NCBI GenBank assembly: GCA_013288045.1
Contig: JABDCP010000003.1
Span: forward strand, 1,899 to 65,898
Direction of reading: 5' to 3'
DNA: 64,000 nt
Origin: Candidatus Babelota bacterium
Lineage (GTDB): Bacteria; Babelota; Babeliae; Babelales; Babelaceae
The notes beneath the pieces were generated by a model. It was not told where the DNA came from, made no database searches, and saw nothing but the letters and a program-made list of their open reading frames with translations. The first letter of the stretch is position 1. Each line of letters starts with the position of its first letter. Both the position numbers and the translations under genes were made by a program. Below are positions 4,363-59,065 of the stretch, one piece after another.

Positions 4363-6813
4363 CTATTTTGTCTTTTTTCGTTGTGCAATTTTTGTCTGCT
4401 TTTTCTTACCTGTTTCCGCTGTCTTTTTTGATTTTGCTTTATCTTCTTCTTTCTCCGAAGGAGCTTTTGCTTTAAAAGGATCTTTTATTAAAGCGAGCTT
4501 AAGCACTTCATCCATATTTTTTACATAGATGATTTTCATATCTTTAAGTTCACCAATATCTGCAATTACCTCTTCAATGTCATCCTTGTTTTCATCAGGT
4601 ACAAAGATCGTCTTAATGCCATGTTGCCGTGCAGCAAGAATCTTAGCTTTTAAGCCGCCTACGCCAAGAACGCGACCACGAAGGGTAATCTCTCCAGTCA
4701 TCGCCATGTCAGGTCGTGTTGGATTCTTAGTAATTGCTGATACCAAAGCTAAGCACATTGTAATACCGGCAGAAGGGCCATCCTTTGGTGTAGCACCCTC
4801 TGGAATATGGACGTGAATATCTCTTGATGCATAGAAGGATTCTTTCAATCCAAGCGGGGTTGCTCGTGATCTTATATAACTAAGAGCAGCGTGAGCAGAC
4901 TCTTGCATAACTTCACCAAGCTGACCTGTAAGAGTGAGTCCACCTTTACCAGGCAGTACGGTTGCCTCAATCTCAAGGATATCTCCTCCAACCTCGGTCC
5001 AGGCAAGACCGGTTGCAAGGCCGATACGTTCACCCGTATCAAGTGTAGTTTTTTTATAGCGAGGATGTCCAAGCCACTCTTTAAGAAGCTCGTCAGTTAC
5101 CTTGACGCTAGTTACCTTCGGATCTTTTAAGAGGATCTGGATACTCTTACGCATGAGCTTTGAAATGATACGTTCAAGTTGACGTACACCAGATTCTTTC
5201 GTGTATTCATTGATGATCTTATGTAAAAGCTCTGTAGGGAGCTTAAACTGAGTAGGTTTTAAGCCATACTCTTTCAAGTTTTTAGGAATTAAGAAAGATT
5301 TTGCAATCTCCATTTTCTCGGCATCAGTGTATCCTGAGAGCATAATGCGCTCCATCCTATCATACAGAGGGAACGGAATGCCTTCAGTATGGTTTGCGGT
5401 AGCAATAAACATTACCTTAGAAAGGTCATACTCAAGCTCAAGAAAATGGTCTACAAACGATTTGTTTTGTTCAGGATCAAGAACCTCAAGCAACGCTGCT
5501 GCAGGATCTCCATGGAAATCGTTCGACATCTTGTCGATCTCGTCAAGTAAGATCACAGGGTTAGCAGATCCGGCTTTTTTAATGGCCTGGATAATCTTAC
5601 CAGGTAAGGCACCAATATAGGTACGACGGTGACCACGTATTTCTGCTTCATCTTTTACACCACCAAGAGAGATCCGCACAAATTCACGGCCTAAGCTCTC
5701 AGCTATAGAATGTCCTAAGGATGTTTTACCAACACCTGGAGGACCAATTAAACAGATGATAGGAGACCTTTGAAGCGATTTAGAGAACTTGCGAGCAGCA
5801 AGGAACTCAATAATACGCTCTTTTGCACGTTTTAATCCTGCATGGTTCTTATTAAGAATCTTTTCCGCATCTTCAAGGCTTATTTTGTCTTGAGTCACCT
5901 TATTCCAAGGTAATGAAATTATCCAATCAATATAGTGCCTACTGACAACCGCCTCTGAAGATAGGGGGGGCATCTGTTCAAGCCGTTTAAGCTCTTTATT
6001 TACCTTATCAAGGGCTTCCTTAGGAAGACCAAGCTTTTTTACTTTGGAGCGAATAAGGGCAATATCTGATTGGGTATCGTCGCGGCCAAGCTCTTTTTGA
6101 ATAGCCTTCATCTGCTCAGTTAAATAGTATTCCCTTTGGCTTTTTTCAACCTGTTTTTGTACATTCCCTCGGATCCGTTCTTCAGTCTCTAAGATATCTA
6201 TTTCTCGCTGCAGAAGGGCGGATATCTTGGATATACGAGCCTTAAGATCAGGAATCTCAATGATTTCCTGGCGTTCTTCAAAGGACAAATTAAGATGGAC
6301 TGCGAGCGTATCGACAATATTGTCCATATCTTCAGGACTTTTGACCGCAACAAGGAGCTCAGCGGGTATTTTTGTATTGTATTGGGCAAATGTAGCATAG
6401 AGCACCTTGAGCTGTCTCCAAAGGGCTTCTAGCTCAACGGTTTTATTTAAGCTTGTTGTAGGAAGGTCGACCGTTTCGACCGTAATAAAGTCATCACATT
6501 TTTCGGGCCTTACAATTTGTGAGCGGCAAATACCTTCTACAAGAATTTTAAGAGTGCCCTTAGGCATTCTCATAACCTGTAATATGGTTGACTTAGTACC
6601 TATTTGGTAGACATCGTCTTCAGTGGGATGCTCAATTTCTGCATTTTTTTGAGCCGTTATAAACAGCTCTTTATTATGACGCAAGGCATATTCTACCGCT
6701 GAGATTGAGGAAGATCTTCCTACAATGATCGGCAAAATACTTTTGGGTAATATAACCACATTCTTAAGCGGTAAGAGAGCTAAGACTGCAGGATTTTTCT
6801 CGTTTTCTATCAT
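4363..6813 (-). CDS. lon: ATP-dependent Lon protease
   Basis: 816 aa with Walker [10 protein letters not shown], catalytic Ser motif PKDGPSAG and Lys motif [10 protein letters not shown]. It also carries a Lys-rich C-terminal tail. Confidence 0.97.
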
Positions 6814-8515: not shown

Positions 8516-10033
8516 ATGTTTGAATCTCTCTATCAATTATTAGAATTACCCATTAAATATTTGGGCCTTGCGGGAACGATCACGCTAGGCTTTGGTGTCA
8601 TCTTTCTACTCTTGAGTTTGATTTTCGGAGCTCGAAATGTTTTAAAGCCCATGTTTGGTGACTTTGAAACTGAAGAACTCAAAAAATTCATCCTTCTTGG
8701 TTTAATTTTTGGTCTCATTATTGGTATTTACTGGACCTTACGTCCTTTGAAAGATGCACTCTTTCAAGAAATCGTTGGCGGTGAATGGCAGCCTCGTGCT
8801 AAATGGCTCTCTTTAGTAGCTATTTTGCCTCTCGTTGTTATCTATAGCAAACTTGTTGAGATGCTGTCCCGTCAAAATCTTTTCTATGTCATGTCTGCTG
8901 CTTATGGTATAGCAACTTTGATTTTGGCATGGTTCTTCTTCCACCCGACCTACGGGCTTGAGAATCTGCATGCAGATCCATCACGTCTTCTTGGGTGGGT
9001 GTGGTATGTGTTCGTTGAGAGCTTTGGTTCATTGCTTGTCGCACTCTTTTGGGCTTTCGCTACGGACATTACAAAAGCGGACTCGGCTAAGAAAGGATTT
9101 TTCTTAGTTGCTATGTTTGGGCAGATCGGGGGCATATATGGACCTCTGATGACCAAAATTCCAAAGATATATAATGTAAGCAATGCCTATCCGGTGGTTG
9201 CCTGTGGATTCTTAATCTTGCTTATTATACCACTTGTTTGGTTCTTTATGAGAACTGTTCCAGCGTCCCAAATGAAAGGGTTTGAGGGAACTGAGCCTAA
9301 AAACACTAAGCATGAGGCTGAGCCCGGGTTCTTCGAAGGATTGAAGTTGATGGTCTCAAAACCTTACTTGTTAGGGATTTTTGGTATCATCTCCTTCTAT
9401 GAAATTATTGTCACCGTTTTTGACTATTACTTTAAACTCATGGCACAGGCCAACATTCTTGATAAAGCTGAAAAACTTCACTTTTTGGGTGAATATGCAC
9501 AGTTTGCAAACCTTGCCACATTCGTGTGCCTGATATTTGGTATCAGCAACATTCAGCGCTACTTGGGTCTTACAGCATCTTTGGTGTTGATGCCTATGTT
9601 AGTTACCTGTGCTGTTGCTGTATTCAGGTTCTATCCAGCATTAACGCCTCTGTTCTGGCTCATGGTTGCATCAAAGGCAGTAAACTATGCCTTAAATAGT
9701 CCTTCTATGAAACAGCTGTATATTCCTACAACTGAAGATGTTCGTTACAAGTCCCAGGCTTGGATTGAAACCTTTGGATCACGAGGATCTAAAGCAGGGG
9801 GATCAGCTATCACTGATCAGCATCAAAATGTAGTTATTGCAAATGGGCCTCAGTGGGCCGATAAGGCATTCAGAAAAGAGCATATGTTCCAACCAGAGGA
9901 TCTTGGCTCATTCTGGTACATGGCAATTAGTTGCTATTTCTTCCTCGGTGTCCTTGCTGTGTGGGTATTTGTAGCCCTATACCTTGGTAGAACGTATCAA
10001 AAAGCTGTTGATAGTAACAAGGTTGTTTGTTAG
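8516..10033 (+). CDS. tlc: ATP/ADP translocase-type nucleotide transporter (TLC/NTT family)
   Basis: 505 aa with about 12 TM segments. Family motifs are LRPLKDALF, FWAFATDITKADSAKKGFFLVAMFGQIGGIYGP and MKQLYIPTTEDVRYKSQAWIETFGSRGSKAGGS. Confidence 0.85.
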   Translation: MFESLYQLLELPIKYLGLAGTITLGFGVIFLLLSLIFGARNVLKPMFGDFETEELKKFILLGLIFGLIIGIYWTLRPLKDALFQEIVGGEWQPRAKWLSLVAILPLVVIYSKLVEMLSRQNLFYVMSAAYGIATLILAWFFFHPTYGLENLHADPSRLLGWVWYVFVESFGSLLVALFWAFATDITKADSAKKGFFLVAMFGQIGGIYGPLMTKIPKIYNVSNAYPVVACGFLILLIIPLVWFFMRTVPASQMKGFEGTEPKNTKHEAEPGFFEGLKLMVSKPYLLGIFGIISFYEIIVTVFDYYFKLMAQANILDKAEKLHFLGEYAQFANLATFVCLIFGISNIQRYLGLTASLVLMPMLVTCAVAVFRFYPALTPLFWLMVASKAVNYALNSPSMKQLYIPTTEDVRYKSQAWIETFGSRGSKAGGSAITDQHQNVVIANGPQWADKAFRKEHMFQPEDLGSFWYMAISCYFFLGVLAVWVFVALYLGRTYQKAVDSNKVVC

Positions 10034-10130: not shown

Positions 10131-10176
10131 GTAGGTAGACGGTATCTAAGATGGATGTTGACTGGGGGGATTGTCG

Positions 10177-42432: not shown

Positions 42433-45141
42433 CTAGTTGCTTCTCAAATTAAGCTCTCGGCATCTACGGTTCACCGAAGATCTATTCACACCAAGAAGAT
42501 GAGCAATTTTACTTTGATTTTTGAAGGTATACCAGAGCTGAGCCATTATGTGTGGATCGCGGAGTGCTTTTTTCCCTAGTCTTACAGCTTGAGCGATGAC
42601 CGGATCGGTAATACTATTCACCGGATCGATTTTCTCAATGTCTGTGATATTATGTGATCGGGACTTTTCAAGAAGCAGCTCTTGAATTCGCTCTTTAAGC
42701 TCTTGCAAGCTGAGAGGACATTCCTTGATAAGTTGTGAAGTTTCCTTTGGTGTGATACTCAAGAGGTCTTTGAACGTATCAGTAGTGATTAGTTGATCGG
42801 CATATCCTTGTGCAAGCAGGGTGATATCTTCATGAGCAAGGTCAGTTAATGAAGGGAGACTTATGGTAGTGGCTTGCAGCTGCTCAAAGAGCTCTCGAGA
42901 AAAGATTCCTTCATTCACTAATACAGAAAGATCTTTTGACGTTGAACAGATGATGCGGGCAGAGCTCATTATTTTTTGGTCGCTTTTTACTTTATAAAAG
43001 TACCCCATGCGGATGTACTGGGCCAAGGCCTCTTGTGAGGTGAGACTTAACAGTTCCAGATTTTGAATAAAGAGGGTGCCTGATTCATCGAGCTTGGTAA
43101 GCAGACTTTCAGATTGACTACCGCCCAGGAGGTCATTGATCCCAAAGAGCTGTGTGGAGATTTCATCATGCTGCTCATGTTGGGTAAGCTTGAGGGTGTA
43201 CAAGTTCCTCCTTAGACTTATCGAATGGAGTAATGTTACTGCTGAAAGCAGATCTTCCTCAGGCAACGAAAGAAGGACAGCTTTTCTGGTTAAGGCCGCA
43301 GAAAGAAGTCCAATTTTAAAGGACAAGAGTGCCTCAGAGGTGCCAGGAATAAGTTCATTAATAAGCCGCCCCGATTGGGTTGTTTCTAAATAGAGCACAT
43401 AGTCCCAACAGGAGGGATCTTTTAAATACCCAGCATGGGGTTTTAGCAAATCTGAAATTTCTGGATAGTAGAGGAGGAGTATACTTGAGGTCGTATCTGC
43501 ATTTGGAATACCTGAGATCACCAGCTTAGTGCCACGCGTATCCTTACCGTAGGCTATTTGTGCAGTTTTATACTGTTCAACCCGTTGTGCTACGGTCGTG
43601 CATACTTTGGTGAGTGGATGTCCTGAGAGCTTATTCAGATCAAAGCCCACGAGGTCATGAGCAGCTTCATTGGCATATGAAAAAGTGCGATTCTTATAGG
43701 ATATGATGCCGATTTTTCGCTCATGAGAGGTGCGCATGAATGAGCGTATCAGCTCCTTGTACTGATTAATTTCTTGATGCTTATGATAAAGTTCCTCAGT
43801 AAGCTGTTTCTTTTGTACATGCAACGCCTCCATACTACTCTGTTGCAGTGCGGAAATGACGTTACTTATATACGAGGTAAACACGAGCATTTCATCCCGT
43901 TCTTTATTTGTGTAGAGCTTATCAGGTCGTGCATCGCGTTCTACCATAATATAGGCAACTATCCTTGACTGTTCGTAAATTGGTACAAAGAGATCAGCAT
44001 GGATCAAATCAAGGAAAGCGAGAATCTTTCTGTTGAGATCTGAAGCCTCATAGAAATAGGAAAATTCTACGGAATCTCGAATAAATATTTTATCGCGGGC
44101 TAAAGCGGCACGTAATAATTCATCCTCTTTAAGAAATTGGTCAATTTTTAGCGCTGCTCCTATGGCTTCTGGCGAAGTGATCGCGGCATCTTTAATGAAG
44201 AGCCGGGTAAAACTGAGTCGTATACCGAAGGCTGTATGAAAAAAGGTCTGGGTGATATGGCCCAGTTCATTGACTGCTGAGGCATACCTCACCTGCTCCA
44301 AGATGTCCTTAAAATTAGTAAGAAAGTTAAAGGGTACCTTCGAGGTGACATCTGAATGTAGATTAAGCAATCTCAGGCCGAGCATTTTTTTGCTCAAAGT
44401 TATCAGAAGAATGGCACTGCAGAGGGCACCAAGAGTGGCCCAGGAGTATTGACCTAAGGGGAAAGGAATATGTGCCGCACTAAAAATGGTGTACCAGCCG
44501 TCACCAAACAGAAGCAAGGAAAAAGGAAAGAGGTACAGGAGGCATGATTGTGCCTGAACAGCCAAAATTTTAGGAAGTGTTCTGGTGCGTAGTTTTCGTA
44601 TAAGGAATATAAAAAGACCCAAATACAAGACAAATACATAACAATAACTCGCAGAAATTACGTTATGCTCAAGGAGATATTCGCTGCTTGATGTAACTAC
44701 CGGAATTCCATAATAGGCTCCCGCTTCATATAAGAAAAAGCTGGTGAACAGGAGATTGCACAGAAGGCTGAAAATATGAAGGAAGGTGCACTTAATTCTT
44801 TGGGTTAAGAGGTATTCAAAAAAGAGGACTAATGCCTGATGTGCAGTTATGAAAAGACTCAAAGAAATCCGGCAATAGAGGGTAAAAAGGGGGATGTCGC
44901 CCTGTATTTCAAGAATCCTTCGTAAGACGACCGATCCAATATAGGTAGCATCATCAAGGAGCGTTCCGAAAAGAAATATGAGTAACAGAAAAAGAGGTGC
45001 CCTGAGCTGTGGTTTATTATACCAGAACTTGACAATAAACCGACTAATAACGAGCTTGGCAATGCCCACAAGGATGAGAGCGCTACACGTTATATACGGA
45101 TTAACAAGGAAGGAGGTGAGTGCTTCCAATAAGTGGTTCAT
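42433..45141 (-). CDS. Paralogue of the 38509-41223 membrane regulator (same architecture)
   Basis: Colinear with the first regulator along its full length, e.g. GDIPLFTLYCRISLS, FNFLTNFKDILEQVRYASA, AYIMVERDARPDKLYTNKERDEMLVFT and GTLFIQNLELL..ARIICSTSKDL, with HTH IAHLLGVNRSSVNRRCRELNL. I chose ATG 45141 (MNHLLEAL) because it aligns with the paralogue's N-terminus; the tracked ORF starts at TTG 45213. Confidence 0.7.
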   Translation of the reverse strand: MNHLLEALTSFLVNPYITCSALILVGIAKLVISRFIVKFWYNKPQLRAPLFLLLIFLFGTLLDDATYIGSVVLRRILEIQGDIPLFTLYCRISLSLFITAHQALVLFFEYLLTQRIKCTFLHIFSLLCNLLFTSFFLYEAGAYYGIPVVTSSSEYLLEHNVISASYCYVFVLYLGLFIFLIRKLRTRTLPKILAVQAQSCLLYLFPFSLLLFGDGWYTIFSAAHIPFPLGQYSWATLGALCSAILLITLSKKMLGLRLLNLHSDVTSKVPFNFLTNFKDILEQVRYASAVNELGHITQTFFHTAFGIRLSFTRLFIKDAAITSPEAIGAALKIDQFLKEDELLRAALARDKIFIRDSVEFSYFYEASDLNRKILAFLDLIHADLFVPIYEQSRIVAYIMVERDARPDKLYTNKERDEMLVFTSYISNVISALQQSSMEALHVQKKQLTEELYHKHQEINQYKELIRSFMRTSHERKIGIISYKNRTFSYANEAAHDLVGFDLNKLSGHPLTKVCTTVAQRVEQYKTAQIAYGKDTRGTKLVISGIPNADTTSSILLLYYPEISDLLKPHAGYLKDPSCWDYVLYLETTQSGRLINELIPGTSEALLSFKIGLLSAALTRKAVLLSLPEEDLLSAVTLLHSISLRRNLYTLKLTQHEQHDEISTQLFGINDLLGGSQSESLLTKLDESGTLFIQNLELLSLTSQEALAQYIRMGYFYKVKSDQKIMSSARIICSTSKDLSVLVNEGIFSRELFEQLQATTISLPSLTDLAHEDITLLAQGYADQLITTDTFKDLLSITPKETSQLIKECPLSLQELKERIQELLLEKSRSHNITDIEKIDPVNSITDPVIAQAVRLGKKALRDPHIMAQLWYTFKNQSKIAHLLGVNRSSVNRRCRELNLRSN

Positions 45142-45303
45142 TGACAATGTCTCTAGTCCCTCACAGGAGGGTATATATAAAATGAGTACTGCTTGTATTA
45201 TTAATTTAAACAAATTGGTCTATTGGTCAAATGGTTGGGCGTCTCCTTTGTTGTCTAATGGGCAGTAAAAAGGTAAAGTAGCACATAGGTAGCAAGGAGT
45301 GGC

Positions 45304-52782: not shown

Positions 52783-54723
52783 ATGCAGGTTCTTCTTTCC
52801 CGTAAAGTTTTTTTTGTACCCTTGGTGACTATCCTTTTTCTTGTCCCAAGCAGAGTACTGTATGCACAAGAGAGTATTCCAACTATTATTCCGGCAGTCA
52901 TCCAGGGAGGCTGCAGTGTCTGCGGAACTACTTCTTGTATTAACTGTCCCAAATTCTCAGGGGTAACCCGTGCTGTAAGTGACCAGGTGTCAGTAGGCTG
53001 TGGTGCCTGTAAGGATACTGGTGAATTTTGTAACGACACAGCTTGTGCCTGTTTTATTGATCCCAGAGCATCACGAGGTGTGTGCCGTGGTCGGACTGAC
53101 TGCAGTATGAGAGAGCTACCCCCTTATTCAGCATTTATTCCTCGGTCACAAGGTACCAATACTGCGCGAGAATTAGCAGGCTGGGAAGAGTTTATTCATC
53201 AGTTTGATGTAGGGGAGTATTACCTTACGACCGGCCATGTTCTTGGCTATTATCATTCCTTTAGGCCTGAGAGGATCGCACGAGAACTTTTTGGAGAGAC
53301 TGTGCTTCGGTTTGCCGGAAGTCAGGTGCCTAACAGAGGTTGCTGTGAGTTGCTTGCTGATAATTTTGGGTTATCAGATACCTTGCGTGGTGTCGTGACC
53401 ATCGAACCTACTATTGAGAATATCGTCTTTGATAACCAATTTTTCATTGGACTTGATCCACTTGCGTGTGGGTTGTATGCCCGTATACATGTGCCGATAG
53501 TGCATACCCGCTGGAATCTTAATCTCTGTCAAAAAATAGAAAGTGTACAGCCTTGTCCTGATTTCCCTGCATGCTATATGGCAGATGAGGCGGTACCTGC
53601 CCAGTGTGATATTATCAAGGCACTGAGTGGACAGCATACCTTTGGTGATATGCAAACTCCCTGGGCCTATGGACGCATAAAAAATGGTCCTCAAACAAAG
53701 ACCGGACTTGCTGATATAGATCTTATTGTAGGGTATGACTTTAGGCAAACTGATACTTCCCATCTAGGATTCTATGCGCAAGCAGTACTCCCTACTGGGA
53801 CAAAGTTTACGGCACGAGAGCTTTTCCAGCCTCTTGTGGGTAATGCCCATCATTTTGAGTTGGGAGTTGGGGTGAGCAGCCATTGGATTCTTTTAGAGAG
53901 CGACGCTCACAGTAACCTTGCCCTGTACTTAGAGGGAAATGTCGTTCATATGTTTAAAAATACTCAGATGCGTACCTTTGATTTTTGTAATAATGGTCCT
54001 TTAAGTCGATATATGTTGCTTAAAGAGCTTACTGAAGAAGATGGACAATTTACCTATGCAGGCTCGCTTATTAATGCAGTTAACTTTGCTACTCGCCCAG
54101 TATCAGTAAGCATAGCAGCGAAAGGTGATATTAGTGCTAAGCTTGCTGTCCGGACCCCTCATATTATTGCTGATATTGGCTATAACTTTTATGGACGCAC
54201 CAAAGAAAATGTGCATATTAATTCGTGCTCAGATGAACGTATCTATGCTATAAAAGGTACAGAGGGCGTGTGTGGCCTTGAATACATGACAGATGGCATG
54301 CAATTTGGTTCCTTTGTGGGGGATATTCCTCTTAATTCGTCGCAAAGCCATGCAACGATTAGACGTGGAGCCCATACTGATAATCCGCAACCTGCACCAC
54401 AAGCGAGTCCGTCAGATATTGTGGTCGCCGCTTTTAGTAGGCAAGAAGGCTCCATTGAAGGGCCTGACGTTAAGAAAGCCTTCGTCTCAGCTCCTCCCAA
54501 ATTAGTTACCGTCCGCGACCTTCATAAGGCAAGCGGAACATCTCCATCGCAAGCAACCCATAAGGTATTTGGGTATCTTGGGTACAATTTCTATGATTGT
54601 GACTGGTGTGCGACCCCGTATCTTGGCATTGGTGGTGAAGTTGAGTTTGATGCGCTCTTTCGTGAGGATCGTTCTTCTTTAAACCAATGGTCAGTCTGGG
54701 TTAAAGGTGGGTTTGAATTTTAA
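52783..54723 (+). CDS. Putative outer-membrane beta-barrel (porin-like) protein with Cys-rich N-terminal module
   Basis: Signal peptide ...RVLYA|QE. Fourteen Cys lie within about 80 aa of the mature N-terminus (GGCSVCGTTSCINCPKF..GCGACKDTGEFCNDTACACF..GVCRGRTDC). Amphipathic strands alternate along the rest, and the C-terminus VWVKGGFEF resembles a beta-signal. Confidence 0.6.
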   Translation: MQVLLSRKVFFVPLVTILFLVPSRVLYAQESIPTIIPAVIQGGCSVCGTTSCINCPKFSGVTRAVSDQVSVGCGACKDTGEFCNDTACACFIDPRASRGVCRGRTDCSMRELPPYSAFIPRSQGTNTARELAGWEEFIHQFDVGEYYLTTGHVLGYYHSFRPERIARELFGETVLRFAGSQVPNRGCCELLADNFGLSDTLRGVVTIEPTIENIVFDNQFFIGLDPLACGLYARIHVPIVHTRWNLNLCQKIESVQPCPDFPACYMADEAVPAQCDIIKALSGQHTFGDMQTPWAYGRIKNGPQTKTGLADIDLIVGYDFRQTDTSHLGFYAQAVLPTGTKFTARELFQPLVGNAHHFELGVGVSSHWILLESDAHSNLALYLEGNVVHMFKNTQMRTFDFCNNGPLSRYMLLKELTEEDGQFTYAGSLINAVNFATRPVSVSIAAKGDISAKLAVRTPHIIADIGYNFYGRTKENVHINSCSDERIYAIKGTEGVCGLEYMTDGMQFGSFVGDIPLNSSQSHATIRRGAHTDNPQPAPQASPSDIVVAAFSRQEGSIEGPDVKKAFVSAPPKLVTVRDLHKASGTSPSQATHKVFGYLGYNFYDCDWCATPYLGIGGEVEFDALFREDRSSLNQWSVWVKGGFEF

Positions 54724-55499
54724 ACTATCCGGTAGCCAGCAAAATATTCTTTGAAGTAGGTACGACAATCCCATTTTTGAGATTTATCCTGTTGAAGATA
54801 CTTTCCTGCTTCTTCTAAGATGCGTTGTACCTTTGCAGAATCAGGTTCCTGGTCAAGTAGCCGTTTCATTTCTTTAAAGAGAAGTTTTAAGGCGCCTTCA
54901 GTAAAGTCGGTTGCTGGGTTATGTCCATAGCCAAGAAGTCGTAAATATCCTTTAACTTCAAGATCGGCATCATAGTTCGATTCTGTATCGATGATACAGA
55001 GCTTACCATCTTTTACGTGCAAATAGTTGTCATGAGTGAGACTAATATATTTAGTTTCTCGGATGAGTACAATAAGCTGGCGCATCTGCTCTTCAGTAAC
55101 TTGATGAGAACCTTGCGGATGTACCTTTTTTACCACGACACAATAGTTTACATTATTGACCTGGCGTGGGCGTCCCTTGAGGTGATAGATGCGTTTATCA
55201 GGCAGGGTGATAAGATCGAGATGATTGGTATCGATAACCTGCTGCATAAGTTCCATGCCCCAGATTCTACTTAGTCCAAACTTTACAAAGTAATCTGGAA
55301 GATCATCAAACGTCCAGACCCCATGTTGACCGCCATGCTTATCGACGTTCTTCAGCTTGGTAAATAGGGAGCTGCTATGCCGATCAAGAATCTTAGCAAC
55401 CTGCTGATCAACCAGGTACTGCTCTATATGATCAAGGATAGTGTAGGCTTGAGTGATCTGAGATGATATGAGTAGTAGGCTCAGGGCACCGCATTTCAT
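54720..55499 (-). CDS. Tandem family protein, subtype A (A1)
   Basis: 259 aa with a signal peptide. Motifs are HGVWTFDDLPDYFVKFG, PDKRIYHLKGRP, DGKLCIIDTE and WDCRTYFKEYF. Its ATG overlaps the upstream stop. Confidence 0.75.
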   Translation of the reverse strand: MKCGALSLLLISSQITQAYTILDHIEQYLVDQQVAKILDRHSSSLFTKLKNVDKHGGQHGVWTFDDLPDYFVKFGLSRIWGMELMQQVIDTNHLDLITLPDKRIYHLKGRPRQVNNVNYCVVVKKVHPQGSHQVTEEQMRQLIVLIRETKYISLTHDNYLHVKDGKLCIIDTESNYDADLEVKGYLRLLGYGHNPATDFTEGALKLLFKEMKRLLDQEPDSAKVQRILEEAGKYLQQDKSQKWDCRTYFKEYFAGYRIV

Positions 55500-56344
55500 T
55501 TGGTTCCTTTATCTCTTTTTTTTAGATAGTGCTGGGTATATTCTGCAAGGACTTTGATAATCTTTTCCCGAACCTTTGTATTTTGGCGACTTACGTAGAG
55601 GTCAAGATCAGAGAGGCATTTGTCTCGTCGTTTATCATCGGTCTCTAGTACGAGATGCTCAGCAATTTTATCAAGAATATAGGCAAGAGCTTCAGCCGTG
55701 TAGTAGTGCGAAAGGTTGCGGTCTAACAATCTAACAAAGCCGGTATTAGGCTTGTCGCGATTGAAGCTACCATCGGTGTCTATAAAGGAGATTCTTCGGT
55801 CTGACAATCTGAGAAAATTAGGCTCGAAGGTGCTTAAATGGCCCGTTTTTTCGATAAGCATAATAAATTGTTGTACCTGCTCAAGGTCCATGGGTATATG
55901 ATACTCGTCCTTGGAATCATGTACCTTTTTACAAATAACCACGTAGTTGAGGCTCGTAAATTCAGTAGGTCTTTCCTTAAGGTGATACAAATATTTTTCT
56001 GGAGTATGCAGAAGATGCAGGTTTTCCTCTTGAATGCATAGGGAGATTCGCTCACGCTTTACCATCCTTGAGACGTTATACTTAACATAATATCCGGGCA
56101 ACCATTTGAAGGTCCAAACCCCATGCTTTTGACGCTCCGTAGCATGGACCGCATCGACAAGACGTGCTAATTCCTTGCTATGCTGATCAAGTATCTCTGC
56201 AAGTTTTTCACTTACCCTATGGTGTTCAATAAATGTTTCATCAACTTCGAGCGAGCCAACTAAGCCTCCATGCAGTAGAGCTGCATGAACGACTAATGAC
56301 CCGCAGAATAAGCTCCTGCGGAGCTTTTGCTTCATCGAATTCAT
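55496..56344 (-). CDS. Tandem family protein, subtype B (B1)
   Basis: 282 aa. Motifs are QKHGVWTFKWLPGYYVKYN, LEQVQQFIMLIEKTGHLSTFEPNFLRLSDRRISFIDTDGSFN and YYTAEALAYILDKIAEHLVL. Confidence 0.75.
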   Translation of the reverse strand: MNSMKQKLRRSLFCGSLVVHAALLHGGLVGSLEVDETFIEHHRVSEKLAEILDQHSKELARLVDAVHATERQKHGVWTFKWLPGYYVKYNVSRMVKRERISLCIQEENLHLLHTPEKYLYHLKERPTEFTSLNYVVICKKVHDSKDEYHIPMDLEQVQQFIMLIEKTGHLSTFEPNFLRLSDRRISFIDTDGSFNRDKPNTGFVRLLDRNLSHYYTAEALAYILDKIAEHLVLETDDKRRDKCLSDLDLYVSRQNTKVREKIIKVLAEYTQHYLKKRDKGTK

Positions 56345-56451
56345 GTCCCCCTCTTTCGATGTTCTGGTCTTAACCCTTATTATTATAGCAATTTAGCTTT
56401 TAAATTTTCAATATTATTATTAAAATGCACATTTGAATTTTAATATTTGAA

Positions 56452-57261
56452 TTACCGTGCTTTGGCACGACCCATAAGGTCCTTAAAGTACTCTGCAAAA
56501 TAGGTCCTATAGTCCCATGAGGGCGGAGTCTCTTTCTCATCTATGTACTGTTGGATCTCCGCAAGAGTGGAACTGATCTCCGATGGTGATTGTTTGAGCA
56601 ACTGTTTTACCTCCAAGAAAACAAGCTGTAGAGCTTCTTTGGAAAGATCTTTGGTAAAGTCATGCGTTCTTATTAAGCGTAGGAACCCCTTCAGAAGATG
56701 GTCAGACTCGTAACGCGATTCGGTATCGATAAAACAGAACTTTCCATCTGTTGTACGTATATAATTAGGTCCTTTTCTATTGCGAGGACCTGCCATACTT
56801 ATATAGCCGGTCTCATGCATAAGCCGGCACAGCTGTTTCATCTCTTTTCCCGTTATGGGTGGTAGTTTGCGTGCAGCATGAACTTTTTGGATCACAATGG
56901 CATAGTTCCGGTTAGAAAGGGTGGTAGGGGTACCCTTTACGTGATATACCCGCTTGTTAGCAACGGTCAGTGAGCTCAAATGGCAGCGTTCCATTGCCTC
57001 TTTCATTTTTTCCAGACCAACTATTCTCGCGATACCATATTTAATGTAGTAGTCAGGGAGCCAATCAAAACGCCATACGCCATGTTTCTTTGAACCGGAA
57101 TCTACCTCTAAGAGTTTTTGAGCAATGATGTCGCTATGCTCGTCGAGGACTTCTGCGATTTTTTGATCTACGAGATACTGTTCAATATGAATTTTTTGTG
57201 CACACAGAGGTAAGCAGAGGGCGCTCGCCGCCAGAAAAAGCTGTATTCGTATACCTATCAT
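56452..57261 (-). CDS. Tandem family protein, subtype A (A2)
   Basis: 269 aa. Motifs are KHGVWRFDWLPDYYIKYG, NKRVYHVKGTP, DGKFCFIDTE and WDYRTYFAEYF. Confidence 0.75.
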   Translation of the reverse strand: MIGIRIQLFLAASALCLPLCAQKIHIEQYLVDQKIAEVLDEHSDIIAQKLLEVDSGSKKHGVWRFDWLPDYYIKYGIARIVGLEKMKEAMERCHLSSLTVANKRVYHVKGTPTTLSNRNYAIVIQKVHAARKLPPITGKEMKQLCRLMHETGYISMAGPRNRKGPNYIRTTDGKFCFIDTESRYESDHLLKGFLRLIRTHDFTKDLSKEALQLVFLEVKQLLKQSPSEISSTLAEIQQYIDEKETPPSWDYRTYFAEYFKDLMGRAKAR

Positions 57262-58097
57262 GGGCGCTCCTTTATGTTTGGCTTACGCACTTTAAGTACC
57301 TTGAGAGTTTTCTTGTGTGCCTTACGCCGCTCTTTTAGTAAGGTAGAAAGTTTTCGTGCAAGGGACTTTTCTTGATCTTCAAGCATGGTGGCAATCCGAT
57401 TGAGTGCCGTCTGGAGATCTTGTCCGTGGAGGAGCACCAGATGGGCAGCAATACGATCTACTATATATAAGAGTGCTTTTGAAGAATAATATGATGAGAG
57501 GTCGCGATTGAGAAGATCGATAATTCCTCGAATCGGATTTGCTTTATTAAACGTACCATCCGTATCAATAAAAGAGATTCTTCCATCGCTAAGTCTCAGA
57601 TAATTATGAGCAAACGTGCTGCAGTGGCCGGTTTTCTCAATAAGAGTGATAAACTGCTTAACCTGCTCAAGACTCATGGGCTCGGTATCTGCAGCAGGGT
57701 CTTCAGTGAGCTCTTCAACGACTATGACATAATTAAGATTAGATAGATTATAGGGCCTTCCTTTGATGTGATGGAGATACTTTTGCGGGACATGTAACAG
57801 ATTAAGACCATAGTCTTTGATGCACTTTGCAAGGACCTCCCTCATAAGAAGGCGCTTTGTATTGTACTTTACATAATAGTTGGGGAGCCAATCAAATTGC
57901 CATACACCATGTTTTTGATAGGGTGTACGATTAGTCTTTTGTGTAAGAGCTTCAAGGAGTTCGCTATGCTCATCGAGTATGGCGCTTATCCTATCATCCA
58001 CAAGGTGAGTCTGAATAAACAGCTCCTCTTTTCTTGCTACCAGGAGAGTACAAGAAAAAAGGGCCGAGCAAACCAGGATGGCATCTCTTAACATCAT
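57258..58097 (-). CDS. Tandem family protein, subtype B (B2)
   Basis: 279 aa. Motifs are QKHGVWQFDWLPNYYVKYN, LEQVKQFITLIEKTGHCSTFAHNYLRLSDGRISFIDTDGTFN and YYSSKALLYIVDRIAAHLVL. Confidence 0.75.
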   Translation of the reverse strand: MMLRDAILVCSALFSCTLLVARKEELFIQTHLVDDRISAILDEHSELLEALTQKTNRTPYQKHGVWQFDWLPNYYVKYNTKRLLMREVLAKCIKDYGLNLLHVPQKYLHHIKGRPYNLSNLNYVIVVEELTEDPAADTEPMSLEQVKQFITLIEKTGHCSTFAHNYLRLSDGRISFIDTDGTFNKANPIRGIIDLLNRDLSSYYSSKALLYIVDRIAAHLVLLHGQDLQTALNRIATMLEDQEKSLARKLSTLLKERRKAHKKTLKVLKVRKPNIKERP

Positions 58098-58864
58098 CGG
58101 AGTCCCCCCAGGTCATCAAAGTATTCATGAGCGTAGGAAAGGTAGTTCCATGCGTGGGGTTGCGGCTGTGCTTCTAGTTGCTCTCTGAGATAGGGTAGAG
58201 CGAATGAGATGTTTTCAGGATGCTTACGGAGCTCTTCTTTAATTTCCCAAAATATATGCTTCAAAGCATCTTTGGTATAATTTTTATTAAGATCATGCCG
58301 AGTTCCGATCATTCTTAAAAACCCTTTAATGCGTTTACTTGCATCAAAGATTCCTTCAGTGTCTATTAAACAGAGCTTACCGTCAGCCATTTGGATATAA
58401 TTAGTACTGGTCATATCAACATAATCTGCTTTGCGAATAATGGTGCAAAGCTGCTGGACCTGTTCAAGTGTAAGTGGTCGTTGTTTTCCTGCTGGCTCAA
58501 TAGCTTTTATCACCACTGCATAGTTGAGATTATTTTGTGTGTATGGCCTACCCTTAATGTGGTATACTCGTTTATCAGGCGTTGTGAGACAATCAAGATC
58601 GTAGGTTTCTATGCATCGCCTTATTCGCTCGACCCCTTTAATGCGTTCTAGGCCATATTTTATATAGTAGCCAGGAAGCCAATCAAATTGCCAGACGCCA
58701 TGCCATTGGATGGTGCTATCAATCTTTTTGATCTTTTTATAAATTTCATGGCTGTGGGCATCTAAGATAGCTTCGATGTCTGAATCGACAGCATATCTTT
58801 CAAAAGCACCCCAGCAACTACTTGCATATACGCTCAAAATGAGCACGGATGCTAGCCATTTCAT
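58094..58864 (-). CDS. Tandem family protein, subtype A (A3)
   Basis: 256 aa. Motifs are WHGVWQFDWLPGYYIKYG, PDKRVYHIKGRP, DGKLCLIDTE and WNYLSYAHEYF. Confidence 0.75.
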   Translation of the reverse strand: MKWLASVLILSVYASSCWGAFERYAVDSDIEAILDAHSHEIYKKIKKIDSTIQWHGVWQFDWLPGYYIKYGLERIKGVERIRRCIETYDLDCLTTPDKRVYHIKGRPYTQNNLNYAVVIKAIEPAGKQRPLTLEQVQQLCTIIRKADYVDMTSTNYIQMADGKLCLIDTEGIFDASKRIKGFLRMIGTRHDLNKNYTKDALKHIFWEIKEELRKHPENISFALPYLREQLEAQPQPHAWNYLSYAHEYFDDLGGLR

Positions 58865-59065
58865 ACCTTCCCCCTTTGTATGCCAATATGAGCTATAATC
58901 ACTACGGGTACATTTTGAGTATACTTAATTAAATTTCTAAAAGTAAATAGAAATTAAAATAACAAGCCATCGATTTTATAATTAGATTAATTTGGCGAGC
59001 TTGCCTCTGATGTGGTTCGGCGTTAGAATAAAAGAATTCGCGCATTATACCTAAAGGAGTTCCCT

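Follow-up and report, generated by a model that had tools for sequence, protein, structure and literature searches.

A tandem array of predicted exported proteins with a kinase-like fold and, in four of five, a conserved serine at the catalytic-base site in a Candidatus Babelota bacterium

Introduction

Secreted sets of kinases and pseudokinases are known from Toxoplasma, where ROP18 and ROP17 are accompanied by tandem ROP5 pseudokinases, and from the pair Fam20C and Fam20A. Serine in place of the aspartate of the HRD motif occurs in STRADalpha, which has also lost the aspartate of the DFG motif; it binds ATP and acts allosterically on the active kinase with which it pairs. OspG and NleH are small secreted effector kinases that may resemble the proteins described here. 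Here we analyse five tandem genes, A3, B2, A2, B1 and A1, on contig JABDCP010000003.1 of a Candidatus Babelota bacterium (assembly GCA_013288045.1, positions 1,899 to 65,898). This stretch of 64,000 nucleotides is called the window, and all positions are counted within it; array loci of relatives carry the labels L001, L002 and so on. The best reading of our results is that the five proteins are a previously undescribed minimal family within the known protein-kinase-like (PKL) superfamily, because fold and sequence profile agree.

To our knowledge, the effector repertoire of the Dependentiae (TM6), widespread and almost uncultured protist parasites, is essentially unknown beyond ankyrin-repeat proteins. 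The locus defines a large unnamed family of predicted exported kinase-fold proteins. In its arrays, which are conserved between genomes, a single canonical enzyme is accompanied by several serine variants, and this makes them an entry point to how Dependentiae act on their envelope or on their hosts.

Results

The models show a kinase-like fold. In the AlphaFold models of A1 (predicted local distance difference test, pLDDT, 84; predicted template modelling score, pTM, 0.81) and B1 (46 sequences; pLDDT 92.3, pTM 0.85) the bilobal PKL architecture is found, an N-lobe beta-sheet with an alphaC helix and a helical C-lobe, at template modelling scores (TM-scores) of only 0.25-0.45. The top matches listed in Foldseek searches of the PDB are PKL proteins only: p38, JNK, FN3K (prob 0.96), Bud32 and Vps34/PI3K. 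Bud32 is the top PDB fold match for B1 (prob 0.98). When the B1 model was compared with BFVD, the best matches were uncharacterised Pithovirus-bin proteins (E 5e-7, prob 1.0), and giant-virus Ser/Thr kinases came next.

Sequence profiles lead to the same superfamily, and they reach kinases only if they include Asp-type distant relatives. Among 177,635 PDB sequences, such profiles match APH(9) at E 3.3e-4 and the choline kinase LicA at E 2.3e-4 (133-sequence profile) or 3e-3 (70-sequence profile), and they also match LanKC kinase domains and many Ser/Thr kinases. All these matches align on one segment, 'yyDlhpkNli..gki.iIDTd' in the family and 'HSDIHAGNVLV...IIDWD' in the enzymes. The initial annotation of the locus, made from the sequence alone, had tentatively proposed a protein-kinase-like or phosphotransferase fold. 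This idea is now backed both by fold (AlphaFold and Foldseek) and by sequence profile, and the modelled fold together with the motif places the proteins in the PKL superfamily.

Kinases hold Mg-ATP with the beta3 lysine, the catalytic-loop asparagine and the aspartate of the DFG motif. In B1 numbering, the family has an invariant lysine, K88, in the YY[VI]K strand, an invariant arginine, R93, five residues on, and in the helix following R93 a residue that is usually acidic, E98. The loop reads [Y/H]-x-[D/S]171-x4-N176 and is followed by the invariant I-D189-T-[D/E]. The lysine sits in a predicted strand directly before the alphaC helix; it is invariant in the core alignment (46/46 sequences), and of the 130 distant relatives that could be aligned, 127 have it. 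The asparagine of the loop is invariant throughout the family. So is the metal-binding aspartate of IDT[D/E], the equivalent of the DFG aspartate, which aligns with the IIDWD of APH(9) and LicA.

The residue at the site of the catalytic base divides the array. It had been noted before that a canonical catalytic aspartate is not conserved. This is right, but A3 and its orthologues keep the aspartate, and the other four proteins have a conserved serine instead. The loop of A3 is Y-V-D150-M-T-S-T-N155 (Asp codon GAT at 58415-58417; K69, R74, D168), the counterpart of the catalytic loop YRDLKPEN of PKA. Orthologues of A3 with the aspartate are encoded in L001, L002, L003, L012, L018, L022 and L023, and 104 of 131 distant relatives also have aspartate at this site. 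Serine is found in nearly all other core members. The serine-variant loops of the window are H-C-S160-T-F-A-H-N165 in B2 (K77, D178), H-L-S171-T-F-E-P-N176 in B1 (K88, R93, D189), Y-I-S153-L-T-H-D-N158 in A1 (K73, and D171 in IIDTES) and Y-I-S155-M-A-gprnrk-G-P-N166 in A2 (K74, D179). The six-residue insertion in the A2 loop also occurs in its orthologues P0016, P0023 and P0054. If a pseudokinase is defined operationally as a protein with the PKL fold that lacks at least one of the beta3 lysine, the HRD aspartate and the DFG aspartate, then A1, A2, B1 and B2 would count as pseudokinases by their sequences, the HRD aspartate having been replaced by serine.

The 41 serine codons counted at the base site of the examined loci are AGY without exception, never TCN, while AGY makes up 41% of the serine codons in the five genes; the 41 codons come from related sequences and therefore give no independent-trials probability. 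Exclusive use of AGY fits a serine that has been held continuously by selection. The genes as a whole are conserved too. When they are compared with locus L003, which is 95% identical and belongs to a 1.6-Mb contig from a soil metagenome-assembled genome (MAG), the ratio of nonsynonymous to synonymous substitution rates (dN/dS) is 0.051 for A3, 0.091 for B2, 0.099 for A2, 0.094 for B1 and 0.101 for A1. None of the five is decaying; each is under purifying selection. We rejected a reading of the genes as pseudogenes on these values (0.05-0.10 in all five). This selection, along with the presence of the array in other genomes, shows that the pattern is no product of chance.

An alignment of the five complete proteins has 35 invariant columns, at 28-45% identity. 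Their predicted mature size is about 230 amino acids, and a helical extension N-terminal to the core, with the motif LDxH, is conserved. The proposed division into subtypes A and B is real: a tree with more than 60 relatives contains two deep clades, and the hidden Markov model (HMM) of each subtype scores about twice as high on its own type (B2, for example, obtains 424 bits with the B-HMM and 202 bits with the A-HMM). The motifs quoted for the subtypes apply in general, with departures in A1 (DLP.YF for WLP.YY and WDC for WDY) and in B1 (KE for KG and DR for DG).

As the initial annotation had suspected, the family is unannotated. For the five proteins we found no sequence match in Pfam, NCBIfam or the PDB; at E <= 1 the Pfam and NCBIfam scans returned noise only and no kinase-clan match. 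Among 70 distant relatives compared with Pfam, none matched a kinase family at E <= 0.01. In the PDB, the core profiles of 5 and of 46 sequences reached only designed repeat proteins and PTPN18 (E > 0.01), and an hhalign comparison of the core alignment with one PKA sequence gave no match. The proteins are filed in no named family because no curated kinase HMM of Pfam (Pkinase, APH, Choline_kinase, Kdo, RIO1 and others) or of NCBIfam matches them. When 5.8 billion proteins were searched with a word index, 52 clusters of close relatives came up, none of which has a name in the cluster look-up. With HMMER, 1.84 billion representatives were searched exhaustively; this gave 828 relatives at E <= 1e-3, 353 of them at E <= 1e-10 and all unnamed. 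Few of the relatives have a taxonomic label. In the literature searched, which included work on Dependentiae genomics, on the Legionella pan-kinome and on PKL proteins of the oral microbiome (a preprint), we found no description of this family. What distinguishes it is a set of features: minimal size, a signal-like N-terminus, the LDxH extension, an arginine after the beta3 lysine, the lack of a Gly-rich loop, a serine conserved at the base site of most members, and conserved mixed arrays.

The genes of the array occupy 54720-58864 on the minus strand (Table 1), exactly where they had been placed. All three junctions within the two blocks are 4-nucleotide ATGA overlaps and the gap between the blocks is AT-rich, both as claimed: its GC content is 25%, compared with 42% for the array and for the window. 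A G-rich, Shine-Dalgarno-like stretch lies upstream of each of the five start codons. At the other end of the array, the stop codon of A1 overlaps, convergently, the stop codon of a gene for a 646-amino-acid protein.

Table 1. Positions of the array genes, the intergenic regions and other features of the window
Feature	Coordinates	Strand	Remarks
A3	58094..58864	minus	open reading frame (ORF), 256 aa; first gene of upstream unit
B2	57258..58097	minus	ORF, 279 aa; start overlaps A3 stop (ATGA)
A2	56452..57261	minus	ORF, 269 aa; start overlaps B2 stop (ATGA)
B1	55496..56344	minus	ORF, 282 aa
A1	54720..55499	minus	ORF, 259 aa; start overlaps B1 stop (ATGA)
Intergenic gap A2/B1	56345..56451	minus	107 nt, AT-rich; sigma70-like promoter and Shine-Dalgarno sequence
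Divergent intergenic region, A3 and S13 D-Ala-D-Ala carboxypeptidase gene	58865..59065		weak sigma70-like matches on both strands
646-aa neighbour	52783..54723	plus	
TLC ATP/ADP translocase genes	8516..10033, 10171..11718	plus	two tandem paralogues
Paralogues of ~900 aa	38509..41223, 42433..45213	minus	
ORF of 562 aa	13864..15552	minus	

The array is probably transcribed as two units. The strongest sigma70-like match in the region lies in the gap between A2 and B1 (TTGAAA, 18 nucleotides, TG-n-TATAAT; hexamers from 56411 to 56382); it agrees with the consensus at 11/12 positions and has an extended -10 TG, and the Shine-Dalgarno sequence GAGGGGGA precedes B1 in the same gap. In L003 the gap holds the same promoter element, and L002 and L012 have weaker ones (9-10/12) in the same place. 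Because the best site of the region lies here and has weaker equivalents in relatives, B1-A1 is probably a second transcription unit with an internal promoter. The number of promoter-like sites region-wide is not above shuffle expectation, and the gap promoter is a prediction only. The promoter of the A3-B2-A2 unit presumably lies in the divergent region upstream of A3, whose other flank is the S13 gene (Pfam Peptidase_S13).

Arrays of this kind are found in other genomes, and apart from the near-identical L003, three more Dependentiae lineages keep the order of the five genes. The order of the window, A(Asp)-B(Ser)-A(Ser), a gap and B(Ser)-A(Ser), is also that of L003 and L012/L013, and L002 has the same five genes with a frameshifted A2 and an extra truncated copy. 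The remaining arrays are A(Asp)-A(Asp)-B-A in L018, A(Asp), gap, B-A-A in L022, A(Asp)-B-A in L023, A(Asp), gap, B-A in L001 and A(Ser), gap, B in L019. Only A genes are present in L005, L014/L025, L020, L029 and L030, and L006 and L007 contain single A-like genes. The recurrent core is A(Asp)-B(Ser)-A(Ser), which the window shares with L003, L002, L012/L013, L018, L022, L023 and L001. On every contig long enough to judge, B adjoins an A. A, in contrast, is often present where B is absent. The B-to-A junctions of the window, L003, L002, L012/L013 and L001 have overlaps of 1-4 nucleotides. In the MAG that contains L005, a different contig (L008) carries an Asp-type gene.

The history of the array differs from what the initial annotation had suggested. 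In the tree, each paralogue of the window groups with its own orthologues from other genomes. Therefore the array is old, and recent tandem amplification is rejected. The proposed amplification of a single A/B pair does not survive either, since five genes each have their own orthologues and their order recurs in L002, L012/L013 and L003. Nor is the alternation of A and B strict, as the orders in L018 and L022 demonstrate.

In L002, the A2 orthologue (5310-6749 with the copy that follows it) is split by a frameshift into 5310-5636 and 5558-6136 and has a cysteine at the base site; a truncated extra A2-like copy follows at 6144-6749. The split is either real decay or an error of long-read assembly. 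More distant members of the superfamily also occur in tandem: as Asp-Asp arrays in L017 and L009, and as four genes in L016 (2920-5947, SRR21358487_3) with Asp, Asp, Gly and Ser at the base site. The serine codon in L016 is TCG. This array lies about 2.8 kb from a gene for a fused double D-Ala-D-Ala ligase. Because L016 combines all three residues and has a TCG serine codon, the base appears to have been lost in tandem arrays more than once. Tandem arrays are typical of the superfamily, and the mixing of canonical and non-canonical members recurs.

TLC translocases are a hallmark of energy parasites. The window encodes two of them in tandem (Pfam PF03219, E 3e-24 and 5e-12), and related loci carry genes with ankyrin, RING, WD40 and PLA2 domains. 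Because of these genes, the sequence fits an obligate intracellular, ATP-importing member of the Dependentiae as the host of the array. Lon, DsbD and PBP2 are also encoded in the window.

N-terminal signal-like segments had been claimed for all five proteins, and inspection agrees: lysine or arginine is followed by an uncharged hydrophobic stretch of 12-20 residues and then by small residues. In the A1 and B1 models the hydrophobic stretch is a low-confidence (low-pLDDT) helix outside the domain. We therefore predict signal peptides by inspection, some of which, especially that of B1, may be uncleaved signal anchors. In C. destructans, 44% of the coding sequences and 78% of the ankyrin-repeat proteins have signal peptides, and the Sec system is present (PMC6561590). 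Components of a type II secretion system occur in all TM6 genomes, with two copies of gspD (PMC4776705).

The N-terminus of the convergent 646-amino-acid neighbour is signal-like, its N-terminal region is rich in cysteine and its C-terminus ends in GGFEF. The sequence resembles that of an outer-membrane beta-barrel, and we found no match to it in Pfam, NCBIfam or the sequences of the PDB. Five-gene arrays are adjoined by an unannotated gene of 630-650 codons, a gene for a 260-amino-acid membrane protein and an ABC exporter. A gene like that of the 646-amino-acid protein stands beside the kinase-like array in L002, L012/L013, L018 and L020, together with the 260-amino-acid membrane protein and the ABC exporter.

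Several further observations concern individual loci. In L001 (1-16700; ERZ25039495 contig_7006) the A(Asp), gap, B-A triplet lies inside a block of eukaryote-like glycosyltransferase genes, with RXYLT1_C in five genes, GT47 exostosin, Branch/GT14, three GT4 genes and a PIG-L deacetylase. This block could hint at a glycan-directed role and is found in one genome only. The Pithovirus matches of the B1 model in BFVD are LCPAC101, LCPAC404, LCPAC401 and LCPAC403 (E 5e-7 to 1e-3, prob 1.0), and they rank above annotated viral kinases. A scan of IMG/VR gave no sequence relatives. Either mis-binning or genes shared by Dependentiae and amoeba-associated giant viruses could explain the Pithovirus-bin matches. 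Elsewhere in the window, two paralogues of about 900 amino acids have a partial Sigma-54 interaction (AAA+) domain at about residues 685-790 as their sole Pfam match, and L012 holds a similar 896-amino-acid gene. The 562-amino-acid ORF has no Pfam or NCBIfam match.

Discussion

The reading that we favour, with modest confidence, is that the array encodes a Sec-exported module of a kinase and pseudokinase-like proteins that uses host-derived ATP, with five paralogues in two units. Each protein would be exported by Sec through its N-terminal segment and would end up in the periplasm, at the cell surface, in vesicles or in a host compartment. Host-derived ATP would be at hand there. Since TLC carriers in the inner membrane must take host ATP from the periplasm, ATP should not be limiting outside the cytoplasm. 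A3 would be the enzyme competent for phosphotransfer. The four serine variants would still bind nucleotide and, by analogy with Fam20A and Fam20C, ROP5 and ROP18, or STRAD and LKB1, might serve as pseudokinase-like partners, regulators or substrate adaptors of A-type proteins. Translational coupling would keep the products of neighbouring genes in matched amounts. Candidate substrates are a host protein, an envelope glycan or lipid, or a small molecule.

Some of our results weigh against a secreted module of this kind. The structural likeness is distant: besides the low TM-scores, the root-mean-square deviations are large and the PDB E-values of Foldseek are about 1e-3. The sequence-profile links to the PDB are marginal (E ~2e-4) and local, and they concern mainly the catalytic loop. 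No Pfam kinase model matches the five proteins or the 70 distant relatives at the thresholds given above. The GxGxxG Gly-rich loop is absent from all five proteins, which have only 'HGVW' before the beta3 strand; several genuine PKL families lack this loop as well. The home-made hydrophobicity heuristic that we applied to signal peptides does not discriminate, as 31/42 control ORFs passed it. This high pass rate is consistent with the very high fraction of signal peptides reported for Dependentiae. The contigs of L014, L019 and L029 carry Ser-type genes only, so that there is no obvious need of an Asp-type neighbour. Finally, pseudokinases are usually relaxed, and a strictly kept serine next to an intact lysine, asparagine and aspartate is unlike them. 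The serine variants could be active by a different mechanism.

One could indeed argue that all five proteins are active extracytoplasmic phosphotransferases (or nucleoside monophosphate transferases or ATPases) that act on small molecules or on glycans and lipids of the envelope or host. The pathway would be multi-step or multi-specific, the paralogues would differ in substrate, and the serine would work in a base-independent or covalent mechanism. We consider this unlikely, and still the most serious of the alternatives. The best sequence matches are the small-molecule kinases LicA and APH(9), in which the second acidic residue of IDx[D/E] is typical, and FN3K is among the best fold matches. 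The exclusive AGY codons, the invariant lysine, asparagine and aspartate ligands of the serine variants, the Ser-only loci and the periplasmic ATP implied by the TLC translocases all suit active enzymes. So do the frequent envelope neighbours, which include S13 DacB, an S41 peptidase, a Mur ligase with thioredoxin, a SurA-like rotamase, PBP1A/PASTA and the glycosyltransferases of L001. But the themes of these neighbours vary between genomes, and where genomes are reduced, synteny says little about a functional link. Moreover, aspartate at this site is the catalytic base in characterised APH, ChoK and FN3K enzymes, and we retrieved no precedent for serine in this role. Doubtful to a slightly greater degree is a wider version, according to which the serine variants are active exported enzymes with serine for the catalytic base and host ATP as donor, and the superfamily of 828 clusters is a secreted 'kinome' common to the phylum Dependentiae, and perhaps to giant-virus bins as well, by which the envelope or the protist host is remodelled.

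The obligate A/B pair that had been inferred from the alternation of the genes fares worse. According to this explanation, the proteins form a heterodimer whose gene pair was amplified, and each A needs a B and vice versa. Overlapping B-to-A junctions in several loci speak for it, and because B is always adjacent to A on informative contigs, a dependence of B on A is plausible. The reverse dependence is contradicted by the loci with A alone and by the single A genes of L006 and L007. The window itself has three A and two B genes, L018 and L022 depart from strict alternation, and separate orthologues for each paralogue make the array ancient. Hence, an obligate pair is improbable, and of the original claim only the half that concerns B is still plausible. 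It is more improbable still that the likeness to kinases is superficial and that the proteins are structural or adhesive components of the envelope or surface without a nucleotide-dependent function, for example partners of the adjacent protein that resembles an outer-membrane protein. Conserved synteny with the gene of that protein would be explained, as would the low TM-scores and the silence of the curated kinase HMMs. It would then be hard to see why the invariant residues are the ATP and Mg ligands of kinases, correctly ordered and each on the predicted secondary-structure element where it belongs, why two independent profiles pick PKL enzymes from the whole set of PDB sequences, and why the top matches listed in all three Foldseek searches are overwhelmingly kinase-like.

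If the array does encode a secreted kinase and pseudokinase-like module, it would be a bacterial counterpart to the secreted kinase and pseudokinase systems of apicomplexans and of the metazoan secretory pathway. ATP import across the inner membrane removes the usual objection to ATP-dependent enzymes beyond the bacterial cytoplasm. A catalytic base that has been replaced by a strictly selected residue would also be informative on how pseudokinases, or alternative kinase chemistries, evolve.

How do the array proteins compare with the kinases and pseudokinases that have been described? Among small kinases, Bud32/PRPK and RIO resemble them in size (~200-240 amino acids), in the bilobal core with a short helical C-lobe and in lacking elaborations of the activation segment. 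In contrast to Bud32, RIO, OspG and NleH, the array family does not have the Pfam matches of these proteins, and it has a signal-like segment, the LDxH extension and an arginine five residues after the beta3 lysine, with no Gly-rich loop. The likeness to APH, ChoK/LicA and FN3K lies in the best profile matches (E 2e-4 to 3e-4), in the Brenner motif H-x-D-x4-N and in IDx[D/E]. However, the Pfam models APH and Choline_kinase do not match the array proteins, which are about 100 amino acids shorter, have signal-like N-termini and carry serine in four of five cases.

With ROP18 and ROP5, and with Fam20C and Fam20A, the array shares a kinase fold with a predicted signal peptide, tandem arrays that mix canonical and base-less variants, and the setting of an intracellular parasite. 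Unlike them, the array belongs to a bacterium, and complex formation and host targeting are hypothetical for its proteins. We detected homology only in the superfamily fold, and the likeness is one of proposed function. STRADalpha offers the same exchange of aspartate for serine. The serine variants of the array differ from it in keeping the lysine, the asparagine and the metal-binding aspartate strictly, and they look less degenerate than typical pseudokinases.

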